Counted from the stretch's first letter, positions 21,643-26,087 are shown. The stretch: DNA of 64,000 nt from Vulcanimicrobiota bacterium (GCA_963820825.1 CAWGBN010000007.1:256001-320000), one strand, 5' to 3'. The notes: generated by a model not told the origin, from the letters alone. Translations and numbers: made by a program.

Positions 21643-22428
21643 ATCAAACTCGCCGTCGCCCTGGTTGCCGTGTTTTTGTCGGTGGCCGGAACGGCTTCTG
21701 CCGACGTGCGGTACGCGACGTCCGGTGAAGACCTTTATCGCATTCAAGCCGCCGGTACGTTCTCGAAGGTTACCTACGCCGGCACCGAGCGGCTCGACGT
21801 TCAACCGCAGGGCAAGGCTTGGCGCTTTGAAGCGCGGGCCCGCTATACGCGCGATGGGCCCGATGGGAAGGAGCACGCCCAGGCGCGCTTCGTCCAGCTC
21901 CTCGCGCCCGACGGCACGTTCGAGGACCGCGTCGACGACGACCCCGACTTCCTAACGATTCTCAACCAGCCGTTTGCGGTGAAGCTCGACGCACCGACGC
22001 TGCACGACCTACGAGTCCTCCACGGAGCGGTTCCCTTTTCGGCGACTTCGCCGCTGGGAGCGCAGGCCGTGCTCCGCGGATACTTGCGCCCGGCGACCGG
22101 CGGACCGATCGACGGTCGCCCGTGCGTCGCCGTGCGCTTCGAAGCCGACGGCGCGATGACGGGCCCGCTCCCCGGATACGCCGAGATGCTCGTCTCGGGC
22201 ACCATGCGGATGGATGGAACGGCGTACTACGCACTCGACGATGCGATGCTCTTGGGTTTGAACGTCGCGCTGACGCTCGACGCGCGGCTGGCCGAAGGCC
22301 GGCCCGCGGTCTCGGTACCGGTGCGTATCGTTTACCGGCGTGCGATCAGAGCGACCGCGAGCGCTAAAACGCTCCCACCAACTCCACTTGCAAAGGGTGC
22401 CGGAACGGTTCCTCCCGCATCTCCGTAA
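21643..22428 (+). CDS. Hypothetical secreted protein
   Basis: Full signal peptide xKLAVALVAVFLSVAGTASA only if started at ATC 21643 after GGAG. Confidence 0.6.
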   Translation: MKLAVALVAVFLSVAGTASADVRYATSGEDLYRIQAAGTFSKVTYAGTERLDVQPQGKAWRFEARARYTRDGPDGKEHAQARFVQLLAPDGTFEDRVDDDPDFLTILNQPFAVKLDAPTLHDLRVLHGAVPFSATSPLGAQAVLRGYLRPATGGPIDGRPCVAVRFEADGAMTGPLPGYAEMLVSGTMRMDGTAYYALDDAMLLGLNVALTLDARLAEGRPAVSVPVRIVYRRAIRATASAKTLPPTPLAKGAGTVPPASP

Positions 22429-22765
22429 GCGGCGTGAATGCCAGGTGGTTCTGATGGCAGTCGATGAGCATCTCGATGCCGCGCTTGACGCACCCGGTCT
22501 CCTCGACGTATTTGGTGAGCTTCTTCTTGAAGTAAGCGCGCGGGTCGCGCAGCACTTTCGCGTAGTACGGGTCGTCGGTTAAACCCGCGGGATCGACGCC
22601 TTCTTTTGGAACCAGCCACACGAACCACGGATCCTCGCTCTGCCGGTAACCGATGAGTGCGAGCGGGATCGCTCGCGCGGACTTAATGTCCGGTAAAAAA
22701 CTACACATCGTGTAGGCATCTAGCGAGATCTCCGTAGGCTCGATCGCTTGCTGCATAGACCGCAC
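22364..22765 (-). CDS. Hypothetical protein, weak DUF3037-like N-terminus
   Basis: YTMCSFLPDIKSARAIPLALIG; overlaps the 3' end of the convergent gene. Confidence 0.5.
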   Translation of the reverse strand: MRSMQQAIEPTEISLDAYTMCSFLPDIKSARAIPLALIGYRQSEDPWFVWLVPKEGVDPAGLTDDPYYAKVLRDPRAYFKKKLTKYVEETGCVKRGIEMLIDCHQNHLAFTPLTEMREEPFRHPLQVELVGAF

Positions 22766-22787
22766 CTTTCATTCCATCAGACGAGCG

Positions 22788-22826
22788 CAAAGAAAAACCG
22801 CTTGACTCTTACGAGCGAAGCGGCTT
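22788..22826 (-). terminator. Intrinsic terminator just upstream of the 22765 gene
   Basis: Minus strand AGCCGCTT-cgCTCgtaaGAGtc-AAGCGGTT-TTTCTTT. Confidence 0.6.
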
Positions 22827-22912
22827 CACGGTACCGGCGGGCGAGGGGCCCTGAGCGAGAGCGGCATGCCGACCGATTAGGAACCCCCGGCTAAACCCCT
22901 TCACCCCATTGG

Positions 22913-23044
22913 TGTCATCCTTGAGCGCAGCGAGCAAAGCGAGCGGAGTCGAGGGGCTGAGCGCAGCGCCGCCCTACTCTTTGTCATCCTGAGCGAAGCG
23001 CCCTAGGCGCGGAGTCGAAGGGCGAGGGCGAAGGGCAAAGGAGC
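22913..23044 (+). repeat. Cluster of REP-like TGTCATCCTGAGCG...GGAGTCGA(A/G)GGG elements
   Basis: Copies at 22913-22956 and 22982-23022, partial CTGAGCGCAGCG at 22957, then GAAGGGC-like tandem units. Confidence 0.7.
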
Positions 23045-23110
23045 GCGGGCGGGGAGTTTTTTGGGAGAGCGTGAAACCTCGGCCCGAGCAGTGGTGGTCC
23101 GGTGCACTGT

Positions 23111-23779
23111 ATGAGCGCGCTCGCACCACTCCTTACGGGAGTACACGTGCCAACAGCGACGACGCCCGGGCGGACCGCGGCGACGCGGGCCCCGGCCGAT
23201 TCCACACCGAGCGTAGCGAACTTCGACCGGATCGTCGACGATTACCAGCGCCGCCTCTACGGTTTCGCGCTGCGAATGACCGGAAATCGCGAGGACGCCG
23301 AAGAGATCGTGCAGGACGCCTTCGTGCGCGCCTACCGCGCGCTTGGAAAGATGTCCGCGGAACAACGGGTCGACCTCCGTCTGCAGCCCTGGCTCTATAC
23401 CATCACGTTGAACGTGACGCGTAACCGCTTGCGGACCAAGCGGCCGTCGAACGTGGCGCTCGACGCTCTGGCCGACCCCGACGCGCTCCTGCGCGAATCG
23501 CACGAAGGCCCGCCGCAACCCGAGGCGATCGTCGAACAGAATACCGAGATCGCGCTGGTCGAGCGAGCGCTTCTTCAGCTTCCGATGCACCTTCGAGCCG
23601 CAGCAACGCTGCGATTCATCGAAGGGCGCAGTCATCCGGAGATTGCCGAGATTCTCAACCAACCGATCGGCACGGTTAAGTCCCACGTCCATCGAGCCGT
23701 GCGCATTCTGCGGCGCATTCTCGGCCCCCAAATCGGACGTTTTGCCCCCGAAGGAGTCCCCCAACATGCGTTGTCGTGA
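23111..23779 (+). CDS. ECF (sigma-70 group 4) RNA polymerase sigma factor
   Basis: DAEEIVQDAFVRAY, WLYTITLN (region 2); EIAEILNQPIGTVKSHVHRA (region 4). Confidence 0.92.
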   Translation: MSALAPLLTGVHVPTATTPGRTAATRAPADSTPSVANFDRIVDDYQRRLYGFALRMTGNREDAEEIVQDAFVRAYRALGKMSAEQRVDLRLQPWLYTITLNVTRNRLRTKRPSNVALDALADPDALLRESHEGPPQPEAIVEQNTEIALVERALLQLPMHLRAAATLRFIEGRSHPEIAEILNQPIGTVKSHVHRAVRILRRILGPQIGRFAPEGVPQHALS

Positions 23780-24494
23780 CGTCGAGGCGCTCTGGGACGA
23801 GCTTCGTGGCGAGTGCCAAGCCTCGCTCAAGGAGACCGTTCACAGCCACCTGCGCGCGTGCCCATCTTGCCAAGTGATGTACGAGCAATACGAAGGCGTC
23901 GCATACTGCCTCTCGTCGCTGCCGCGTCCCGAGCCGTCGTGCGATCTCGCAAAGAAGGTCGTCCATCACATCGCCGCCCAGAAGGGCCGGGCCTATCCAA
24001 TCGCGCTCGCCGCGCTCACCACGCCGATCGGGCAGCTCTACGTCGGCTTCAAGTGCGACCGCATCGCATATCTGAGCCTCGACACCGGCGAATCGCTCAA
24101 CGAGGTGATCGCACGAGCCGAGCGCCGGCTGCACCGGCGCGTCGTGGAAGGCGAGGCCCCGGCTTGGGTCGTGCGTGCGCTCGATCGTTTCTTCAACACC
24201 TGGACCCTCGAGGACGCGCTGCTCGACATCAGCGATCTCACGCCGTTCGAGCAGGCCGCGCTTCGCGCGGCGGCGCGCATTCCGCCCGGAGAGGTGCGCT
24301 CCTATGCGTGGGTTGCAACGCAGATCGGACGGCCAAACGCCGCGCGCGCCGTCGGCCGCGTCATGGCGCGCAATCCGCTTCCGCTACTCTTTCCGTGCCA
24401 CCGCGTCGTCGATTCGTCGGGCGATCTGCACGATTATTATTACGGAGTCGAGATGAAAGCTCGTCTTCTCCAGATGGAGGGCTACCGGGGCTAG
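23766..24494 (+). CDS. zf-HC2/ZAS anti-sigma domain fused to O6-alkylguanine-DNA alkyltransferase (Ogt/MGMT)
   Basis: MRC...HLRACPSC (C-x-HxxxCxxC); IPPGEVRSY, ARAVG, NPLPLLFPCHRVV. Confidence 0.9.
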   Translation: MRCRDVEALWDELRGECQASLKETVHSHLRACPSCQVMYEQYEGVAYCLSSLPRPEPSCDLAKKVVHHIAAQKGRAYPIALAALTTPIGQLYVGFKCDRIAYLSLDTGESLNEVIARAERRLHRRVVEGEAPAWVVRALDRFFNTWTLEDALLDISDLTPFEQAALRAAARIPPGEVRSYAWVATQIGRPNAARAVGRVMARNPLPLLFPCHRVVDSSGDLHDYYYGVEMKARLLQMEGYRG

Positions 24495-24512: not shown

Positions 24513-26087
24513 GTGGCGAATCTGGATCCTAGAATCGCGGCCATTCCCGACGTGCACGGCCATGCCAAGGGCGAGCACCGGCCGTACACCGAGGAACGAC
24601 CGATCGCGTACTCGGCGCGAATGCTCTTTCTTTGGTTCTACCACGCCTGCCGCCGCGACTCGCCGCGGTTCCTCATGGTCGCCGACCATGCGAACTACCT
24701 AACCTTCGAAGACCCCGGTGCCGTCAATACGGTCCGCCGCGCGCTGAACCTCGCGCAAGCCGGCGACCTGCTCGGCGCGGCCGAGACCGCCGGCGTCGAC
24801 ATCGGGCACGCGGCGGTCGTCTCCGAAGGGCTGCGCCGGGGCATGCGTTTCTCGATCGGCGCGGAGATGGATAACGACCCGCGCGCCCGCCCCGACGCGC
24901 AGAACATCATCGATGCGTTGCGCCCCGACGGAATCATCCGCTCGGTGCACTTCGTCCCCATCCAGCATCCCGAGAAGGGAGCCGATTGGCTCTGGCCCTT
25001 CGACAACGAGGAGTTCAGCGGGCTCTCCGAGATCGTCGGGACGGAGAAGCTCTGGGAACTCTACATAACCCGGCTGCTCGACGATCTCGAAAAACTGCCG
25101 GCGCACGTCGTCGGCCATTTTTACGTGCCGGCCGTCTTCGGGCGCTGGCCCGCCCAGAAGAAGCTCGAAGAGTACGAAGACCGCATGCTCGACGTGGCGC
25201 ACCGCCGCGGCCTGGCCGTCGAGGTCAACACGCGCTTCCTCTATCGCGATCATCCCGAGGAGCGGGTGAAGAAATACCTCGAGGCCAACGCGCGCCTCGT
25301 TCGCAAAGCGAAGGCGCGCGGCGTCGGAATAGCGATCGGCTCCGACGCGCATAGCCCGAAGGATCAGGGCAACGGCTTTGACGTCATCCTCAAGCTCCTC
25401 GACGACGCGCGAATCAACGAAGTCGTCTTCCCCGTCGCAGGGCGTTTAGCGCGCGTGGCGCTGCGCGCAACCCGCGAGCATCTCGAAGCGGAGGCGCAAG
25501 CCCGACGCCAGTCGAGCGCTCCGGGAAGCAGCATCACCGGCTATAGCCGCGCCGAGCTGGGACTTCCCGAAGAGGCCGAGGCCGCGGCGCGCGCCGGCGG
25601 CCGTGCAACGCGTGAGGCCGGGCCGAAGAAACGGGCCAGCGATTCGTCCCGCCCCTCGAAACGCACCGGAGCGGCTGCGCCGCCGAGCGCGAGCACCTCG
25701 CGCCGTAGCGCCGATTCGTCTTCGTCCGCCTCAAAAGCGAAGGCGGCCCGCGTCGCGAAGCCCGCACCCGCGCCGAAGAAGAAAAAGCCGGCGGTGAAAG
25801 CGCCCGCAACTCGCCCAGTCGCGGCGAAGAAATCGTCGCCGAAACGCGAGCCGGTGCGCAAGAAGACGGCGGCTGCGAAGAAACCGCCGATCAAGAAGCC
25901 GGTCGCCAAGAAGCCCGCGACCAAAAAACCCGCGGTCAAGAAGGCTTCGGCCAAGAAACCGCCGGCAGCGAAGAAAGCCGCCGCCAAGAAGCCGGCGGCG
26001 CGCAAGGCTCCAACGGCGCTACGGCCTAAAGCCGGGTACGCGAAGAAGAGCGTCAAAAAGAAGAAACCCGCGGCGAAGCGCCGCTAG
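24513..26087 (+). CDS. PHP-domain phosphoesterase (HisK-like) with long Lys/Ala/Pro-rich histone-H1-like C-terminal tail
   Basis: DVHGH, ADHA, GAEMD, SVHF, GHF, EVNT, GSDAH; tail of AKKP/KKPA repeats. Confidence 0.8.

Follow-up and report, generated by a model that had tools for sequence, protein, structure and literature searches.

An ECF sigma factor paired with a zinc anti-sigma domain fused to an O6-alkylguanine-DNA alkyltransferase: a candidate alkylation-damage response in Eremiobacterota

The locus

The genome of a soil bacterium of the Eremiobacterota (Vulcanimicrobiota), a metagenome-assembled genome (GCA_963820825.1; 9 contigs, 2.98 Mb, 85% complete, G+C about 65%), encodes an extracytoplasmic function (ECF) sigma factor followed directly by a protein that joins a zinc-containing anti-sigma (ZAS) domain to an O6-alkylguanine-DNA alkyltransferase (Ogt). 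The pair lies in a 64,000-nucleotide stretch of contig CAWGBN010000007.1 (256001-320000), here called the window, whose own numbering is used below. An earlier note on this DNA had proposed that the two genes form an "Ada-independent" response to alkylation damage in which the repair enzyme is itself the sensor. Both genes are on the plus strand. The sigma factor gene (23111..23779; ATG at 23111, TGA at 23777-23779) encodes 222 residues, and the gene for the fusion (23766..24494; ATG at 23766, TAG at 24492-24494) encodes a soluble protein of 242 residues. The ends of the two open reading frames (ORFs), at 23779 and 23766, give the 14-nt overlap that the note had described (ATGCGTTGTCGTGA); judging by this overlap, sigma and fusion are translationally coupled.

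The fusion divides into a class I zinc anti-sigma domain (residues 1-75; 23766..23990), assigned from its zinc ligands, a family profile and structure models, and a complete alkyltransferase part (24000..24494), assigned from Pfam, NCBIfam, a PDB profile and Foldseek. A candidate ECF-type autoregulatory promoter precedes the pair on the same strand (23073..23099), with GAAAC(C) at 23073-23078 as the -35 element and GTGGTC at 23094-23099 as the -10. The trivial explanation that the fusion is a mis-called long ORF is rejected: the ORF opening at 23643 crosses the 3' end of the ECF gene out of frame, and the start at ATG 23766 is backed by relatives that align there from residue 1.

By models that score above their cut-offs, the upstream protein is an ECF (group 4) sigma factor consisting of regions 2 and 4 only. 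It matches Sigma70_r2 with 57.5 bits (cut-off 24), Sigma70_r4_2 with 49.8 bits (cut-off 25.7) and the general ECF model TIGR02937 with 95.6 bits (cut-off 42.9). No equivalog cut-off is reached, the best such model being SigW (112 bits vs 209). Residues 1-35 (23111-23215) open with a conserved 12-residue N-terminus, MSALAPLLTGV.VP; the linker between it and region 2 is variable and has many Pro, Ala and Thr residues.

The alkyltransferase part

The Ogt part comprises an N-domain (residues 79-145) and a C-domain (residues 160-237). DNA_binding_1 matches residues 160-239 with 97.9 bits (cut-off 27), TIGR00589 scores 89.6 bits (cut-off 46.4), and the full-length Ogt model NF007626 aligns over residues 85-240. 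Both active-site motifs are present, AARAVG and PCHR (24393-24404), with the acceptor Cys211 encoded at 24396-24398. These matches bear out the claim that the protein ends in a complete Ogt domain with its arginine finger and PCHR acceptor; as far as sequence can tell, this part is a complete O6-alkylguanine-DNA alkyltransferase with an intact PCHR site. Y180, R194, N203, P210-C211-H212-R213, Y224 and E238 are invariant in all 81 Eremiobacterota copies and in 38 of 38 aligned sequences across phyla.

Structural comparisons agree. The PDB profile match to Ada-C (1sfe) has an E-value of 3e-36, and Foldseek on the model of the fusion finds Mycobacterium tuberculosis Ogt (4wxd, E 5.6e-12) as well as 1sfe (TMt 0.83); the structures matched include the methylated forms 1eh7 and 4zyg. 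A Pfam scan finds neither Ada_Zn_binding (PF02805) nor a helix-turn-helix (HTH) domain in the fusion, and the Ada equivalog model NF011964 matches just the Ogt part, with 70.6 bits where 345 would be needed.

The anti-sigma domain and its predicted complex with sigma

An AlphaFold2 model of the fusion monomer (mean predicted local distance difference test score, pLDDT, 89.9; predicted template modelling score, pTM, 0.66) has four N-terminal helices, at residues 3-14, 19-31, 33-50 and 61-73; the two Ogt domains come after them. The zinc ligands are C3 (23772-23774), H28 (23847-23849), C32 (23859-23861) and C35 (23868-23870), and all four are invariant in the same 38 cross-phylum sequences and 81 Eremiobacterota copies. 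Distant relatives (31-49% identical to the fusion) were chosen for full-length alignment from a search of 1.84 billion representatives, a choice that biases them towards having the N-terminal domain and not towards identity of the four ligands.

A HMMER check of the protein succeeds for DNA_binding_1, as given above, and falls short for zf-HC2, which matches residues 6-36 with 18.2 bits, under the Pfam gathering score of 22.2. The assignment as a zinc anti-sigma domain stands despite this low score because 10 of the 20 distant homologues scanned do reach at least 22.2 bits with zf-HC2, because the ligands are invariant, and because the family profile, compared with the PDB, matches the anti-sigma factor RsiW (5wuq_C) over positions 1-77 with an E-value of 3.2e-7. 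RslA and ChrR are also matched, and the same profile matches Ada-C and Ogt structures. Chance resemblance can be rejected as the source of the zinc motif, since it is invariant in every homologue. Further residues of the domain are conserved among the 81 Eremiobacterota copies, with C59 and H68 present in all 81, C17 in 77 and C48 in 76; these four are a possible second site for a metal or a disulfide. The ZAS motif with extra cysteines that had been read from this DNA is thus confirmed, and so is the lack of a transmembrane segment, the maximum Kyte-Doolittle mean over any 19 residues of the fusion being 1.20.

Binding to the sigma factor was examined by predicting the complex of sigma residues 36-210 with fusion residues 1-90, alongside three controls. 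The pair gives ipSAE values of 0.80, 0.80 and 0.71, against 0.34 for the best of the three controls; when the tool was calibrated, 116 of 157 solved complexes attained the mark, as did 2 of 215 mismatched pairs. Between runs at least 74% of contacts recur, and pLDDT of the partner is at least 72. The modelled contacts join fusion residues 7-16 and 37-72 to sigma residues 38-76 and 146-210, and the predicted error is lowest at fusion residues 41-52. The model thus supports binding, with the zinc domain predicted to lie between sigma regions 2 and 4.

Conservation of the gene pair

A survey of species-representative genomes returned 80 loci, all from Eremiobacterota and all with an ECF gene directly upstream and the identical overlap, although these 80 loci are not independent because the whole neighbourhood is syntenic. 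Distant genera, whose fusions are 47-57% identical, also have the ECF gene adjoining the fusion, in 16 of 16 loci. Across 201 sampled genomes of the phylum, a full-length match to the fusion is found in 114 of 114 genomes of one family (f1, counting the source genome) and in 3 of 3 of another (f2); the remaining 84 have matches to the Ogt domain only, the best with an E-value of 4.6e-24 as against 4.5e-70 or lower for the full-length matches. (These tallies take in two genomes flagged as unpublished, G178 and G128, and the conclusion holds regardless of them.) The sigma factor is better conserved, at 74-96% identity, than the fusion, at 47-90%. Six f1 genomes that are 96-100% complete have the fusion as their sole match to the fusion query; it is therefore probably a working Ogt, and probably does the bulk of alkyl repair in those organisms.

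Relatives in other phyla

A metagenome scan with the distant fusions yielded 80 loci, 17 of them uninformative as they lie at contig ends; the counts given here are of loci with enough upstream DNA. An ECF gene lies directly upstream in 6 of 6 loci encoding ZAS-Ogt-Ada_Zn_binding proteins and in 5 of 5 encoding ZAS-Ogt. Proteins with a short N-terminal extension followed by Ogt and Ada_Zn_binding have it in 30 of 30 loci, those with the short extension and Ogt only in 10 of 16, and plain Ogt in 0 of 5. (Locus L115, a short or truncated Ogt-AdaZn form, has its ECF gene 283 nt off and was scored as non-adjacent.) The earlier note had held that its proposal would fall if the fusion commonly occurred without an adjacent ECF gene; in every ZAS-type locus examined, those from Eremiobacterota, those from the distant genera and the 11 of 11 informative metagenomic ones, the ECF gene is there.

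By their source names, the relatives belong to Chloroflexota (Limnocylindrales), Methylomirabilota/Rokubacteria and Dormibacterota, and their annotation is as methyltransferase only. Those from Chloroflexota and Methylomirabilota either have the methylphosphotriester-accepting Ada zinc domain added or retain just the last part of the anti-sigma domain, and the family profile of the fusion relatives matches the zinc domain of N-Ada (1adn, E 4.6e-8). A profile-profile alignment maps the short extension to fusion residues 44-80 (from late in helix 3 across the linker and through helix 4), a stretch that covers in part the residues of lowest predicted error in the complex model. Because of this alignment, the short extensions appear to be anti-sigma domains in trimmed form.

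In a quick tree built by maximum likelihood from 54 ECFs, the Eremiobacterota sigma factors fall in one clade with 100% support. That clade is nested, with 84% support by the Shimodaira-Hasegawa-like approximate likelihood ratio test (SH-aLRT), in a group of 24 rows that are all Ogt-linked ECFs; the grouping joins the source sigma factor with ECFs that have an N-extended Ogt-AdaZn protein at position +1, and is only a lead towards the published groups ECF122 and ECF203. The tree left out partial ECFs, ECFs under 150 residues and weak or long matches from the source genome, and its rows were cut to the last 215 residues. Other clades of Ogt-linked ECFs are placed elsewhere, with weak backbone support. 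A single origin of all Ogt-linked ECFs was accordingly dropped, the tree having several clades and a weak backbone.

Beyond the pair itself nothing is conserved around the metagenomic ECF-Ogt genes, among the 77 of 89 listed neighbour ORFs that were compared with Pfam. The sole neighbouring repair gene encodes Tag, 3-methyladenine DNA glycosylase (Adenine_glyco, E 9e-65), and lies after the ECF/Ogt-AdaZn pair of locus L100 (3919-4536, plus strand).

The promoter

Upstream of the sigma gene the intergenic DNA is for the most part poorly conserved; its most conserved block in 79 aligned loci reads GTGAAACC (23071-23078), N16, GTGGTC (23094-23099), 11 nt and ATG. Of the 77 loci that could be assessed, 75 carry the motif in the looser form AAC-N18/19-GT[CT], ending 9-12 nt before the ATG, and these take in 11 of the 16 distant genera; among 5000 random ATGs in the source genome, the control, 61 have it. 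(The survey covered 97 loci; the start signature was found in 77, and the other 20 were not assessable.) TGAAAC as a strict -35 element was rejected, being absent in 15 of the 16 distant genera; those of them that carry the motif have CGAAAC or CGCAAC in its place, and a looser core, [GC][AC]AAC, is retained. The mRNA would be near-leaderless, because the -10 element ends 11 nt ahead of the ATG. Taken together, the conserved motif suggests an ECF-type promoter driving a near-leaderless, self-activated operon.

Comparison with known systems

The N-terminal domain resembles those of the SigW/RsiW (Bacillus subtilis), RslA/SigL, ChrR/SigE and RsrA/SigR pairs in being a four-helix domain at the N-terminus with a C/H-x-H-xxx-C-xx-C zinc site. 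As in class I ZAS pairs, it is predicted to be held between sigma regions 2 and 4. The likeness to SigW extends to the source sigma factor, for which the SigW models are the best equivalogs in spite of the sub-threshold score, and to the promoter, whose -35 element resembles the TGAAAC of SigW. Unlike RsiW-type proteins, the fusion has no membrane span and no extracytoplasmic domain; it has a cytoplasmic suicide alkyltransferase instead.

With Escherichia coli Ada the fusion would share the principle of a suicide methyl acceptor that doubles as a regulator of transcription. Its Ogt part is homologous to Ada-C, and the N-Ada zinc domain is present in relatives of the fusion. The fusion itself differs from Ada in having neither Ada_Zn_binding nor an AraC-type HTH, and it would sequester a sigma factor where Ada binds a promoter. 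The activating methylation of Ada, moreover, sits on a Cys of the N-terminal zinc site and not on the Ogt Cys.

The closest published parallel is in the ECF classification of Casas-Pastor et al. 2021 (PMC7826278), whose descriptions of groups ECF122 and ECF203 place a gene for 6-O-methylguanine DNA methyltransferase at +1 of the ECF gene. For ECF203, in Actinobacteria, the description lists Ogt at +1 plus Ada_Zn_binding and TetR. The authors propose a role in DNA damage repair, by a mechanism they give as unknown, and the two group entries give "no putative anti-sigma factor" and a distribution that is 100% Actinobacteria (PMC7826278); in the relevant part of a 2022 review, ECF122 is filed under "unknown mechanism" (PMC8999054). 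The Ogt-type gene at +1 is thus common to these groups and to the present locus. Set against the group descriptions, the locus differs in its Eremiobacterota host and in having a complete zinc anti-sigma domain on the +1 protein; the promoters also differ, CTCAC / CGTCTAC being given for ECF122 and GAAAC / GGTC being the motif found here. Literature searches for a fusion of anti-sigma factor and alkyltransferase gave only this classification and the review, as far as the literature was searchable. What is already in print, by those descriptions, is the ECF-plus-Ogt gene pairing in Actinobacteria, no anti-sigma domain being recognised there. Two points go beyond the searchable literature: the recognition of the +1 Ogt protein as a zinc anti-sigma factor in its own right, and the occurrence of such pairs outside Actinobacteria.

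Interpretation

It would appear that the two genes form a sigma/anti-sigma module, probably self-activating, whose inhibitor doubles as a suicide enzyme of DNA repair, spent by its own reaction; for the module as a whole we find the case for and against evenly balanced. In the resting state, the RsiW-like zinc domain of the fusion would clamp sigma regions 2 and 4. The Ogt domain would repair O6-alkylguanine by moving the alkyl group irreversibly to Cys211, and the alkylated fusion, now spent, would probably be destabilised or degraded like other alkyltransferases (alkylated O6-alkylguanine-DNA alkyltransferases are destabilised and degraded) and would let its bound sigma factor go free. Free sigma could then act at the GAAAC-N17-GGTC promoter to express the near-leaderless operon that encodes it, and the new transcripts would supply both fresh Ogt and fresh inhibitor, so that the response closes when the damage ends. 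The parts of this scheme differ in strength. The domain architecture and its conservation, the adjoining ECF gene, the intact active site and the conserved promoter-like motif are observed, and sigma binding is a prediction from the complex model. The sigma/anti-sigma reading of the gene pair is well supported, and the alkylation-damage-sensing step is a good and plausible hypothesis; we infer, further, that alkyl transfer is the sigma-releasing signal, that the alkylated fusion is degraded and that the sigma-fusion operon is autoregulated.

The scheme draws on the gene overlap, the constant ECF neighbour, the spread and conservation of the fusion, the profile matches, the complex model and the promoter motif. 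In addition, the acceptor site is strictly kept in all copies, two kinds of methyl-acceptor domain, Ogt and the N-Ada zinc domain, recur in the anti-sigma position, and the ECF pairing persists in relatives without the zinc helices. A number of others weigh against it. An intact active site is equally expected of a repair domain that is mere "cargo". Solved ZAS/ECF complexes exist, and the favourable scores of the complex model may reflect likeness to them; the zf-HC2 score of the fusion itself, too, is sub-threshold. The monomer model, at pTM 0.66, predicts no confident contact by which alkylation of the Ogt domain could be transmitted to the zinc domain. No regulon emerges from the source genome, where 84 of 662 sites with TGAAAC plus a suitably spaced GT[CT] amount to about the chance rate and the ORFs downstream of the motif sites have no repair theme; in other phyla, the flanking genes are not repair genes, with one exception among 77 ORFs.

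A further point against the scheme is that the source genome has three more Ogt-type proteins, all on other contigs: an AraC-HTH-Ogt fusion of 287 residues with PCHR present (L002 1477-2340, minus strand), an alkyltransferase-like (ATL) protein with PAHR in place of PCHR (L004 1270-1812, plus strand) and a stand-alone Ogt (L001 1201-1767, plus strand). With these in the same genome, the term "Ada-independent" in the earlier note is not established. Of the rest of its interpretation, the domain architecture, the adjacent ECF gene, binding to sigma (as modelled) and the conserved methyl acceptor are supported, and release of sigma by methylation of Cys211 or of a zinc thiolate is a plausible hypothesis.

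A stronger and more general form of the scheme is sensing by stoichiometric consumption, in which each O6-alkylguanine repaired costs one anti-sigma factor and frees one sigma factor, with the same logic at work in at least five phyla and accounting for ECF122 and ECF203. We offer this tentatively, as falling somewhat short of probable. Operon transcription would then keep a tally of lesions and, with no need of Ada, restore the supply of Ogt, and the N-terminal extension in ECF122 and ECF203 would be a trimmed, cryptic anti-sigma element, a conjecture to which we attach the same reserve.

The first alternative leaves repair out of the sensing. Zinc thiolates of the ZAS domain would be oxidised or alkylated, zinc would be lost and sigma released, the Ogt domain being output only. 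The C-H-C-C ligand set with Cys first and the conservation of C17, C48, C59 and H68 in the same domain fit such a thiol or redox sensor, as does the enrichment of soluble class I anti-sigma domains in zinc motifs tied to redox sensing that is described in a passage of PMC7406223. By analogy, release could proceed as in RsrA-type anti-sigma factors, and direct methylation of the zinc thiolate had been raised in the earlier note as well. However, the ligand pattern is shared by RsiW, the closest solved relative, which is regulated through proteolysis and not by redox. Moreover, some ECF-paired relatives have lost the zinc helices yet retain Ogt and the Ada zinc domain; since the pairing is kept after that loss, zinc-thiolate chemistry in the ZAS domain should not be the common trigger of the family, and we consider a thiol sensor with repair cargo unlikely, though a rival to be reckoned with.

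Still less is to be expected of a pure dosage device, which would tie the amount of Ogt to that of sigma without sensing damage and would release sigma by general proteolysis or through an unseen partner. In its favour, the data give no link between alkylation and release, the flanking genes are unrelated to repair and the regulon search came back empty. Against it, ZAS-Ogt, ZAS-Ogt-AdaZn and N-extended Ogt-AdaZn proteins occupy the anti-sigma position in several ECF clades, and if methyl acceptance had no bearing on regulation, three methyl-acceptor architectures there would be difficult to account for; we rate co-expression alone as quite improbable. Least credible is a tether in which the Ogt domain, in the manner of an ATL, binds alkylated or bulky lesions and thereby keeps sigma at the nucleoid or brings it there, the signal being DNA binding and not alkyl transfer: the DNA-binding helix-turn-helix is intact, as are the Arg finger and the Tyr, and an ATL-type protein does occur in the same genome, but the acceptor Cys is invariant in all 81 Eremiobacterota copies and 38 cross-phylum sequences, whereas the ATL-like paralogue of the source genome has lost it (PAHR), as to our knowledge ATLs in general have.

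If alkyl transfer does free sigma, the module would be a second, Ada-independent design of the adaptive response to alkylation and the first anti-sigma factor inactivated by its own suicide catalysis, and it would supply a mechanism for ECF groups filed under "unknown mechanism, no anti-sigma factor". The module, with two genes, is compact, soluble and easily moved to E. coli, and could possibly serve as a lesion-counting genetic sensor. If alkyl transfer does not free sigma, only the cargo domain of the locus is unusual, and the ZAS/ECF pair is an ordinary one.

Neighbouring features

Downstream of the fusion, the next gene on the plus strand (24513..26087) starts 18 nt past the fusion stop and encodes a PHP/HisJ-like phosphoesterase. 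Its family scores are all below cut-off (PHP 19.9 bits vs 26.4, hisJ_fam 59.6 bits vs 90.2), and its product ends in a C-terminal tail of about 170 residues, rich in Lys, Ala and Pro, that resembles histone H1. No terminator-like site was seen between this gene and the fusion, and 77 of 80 loci have a PHP/HisJ-like gene after the fusion, at variable distance. It is a possible third member of the operon, with its membership uncertain.

Two features lie upstream of the ECF gene. An insertion of about 135 bp (22905-23040), missing from most orthologous loci, contains repeated units like GTCATCCTGAGCGAAGCG...GAGTCGAAGGG and looks like an element of the repetitive extragenic palindrome (REP) or miniature inverted-repeat transposable element (MITE) type. 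Farther up, at 22786-22830, is a conserved hairpin, CCGCTT...AAGCGG, with compensatory changes elsewhere (e.g. CCGCCGT...ACGGCGG in locus L072). The hairpin, which resembles a terminator or attenuator, is followed by a T-run on the minus strand and stands 20-30 nt upstream of the start of a minus-strand gene (22364-22765).

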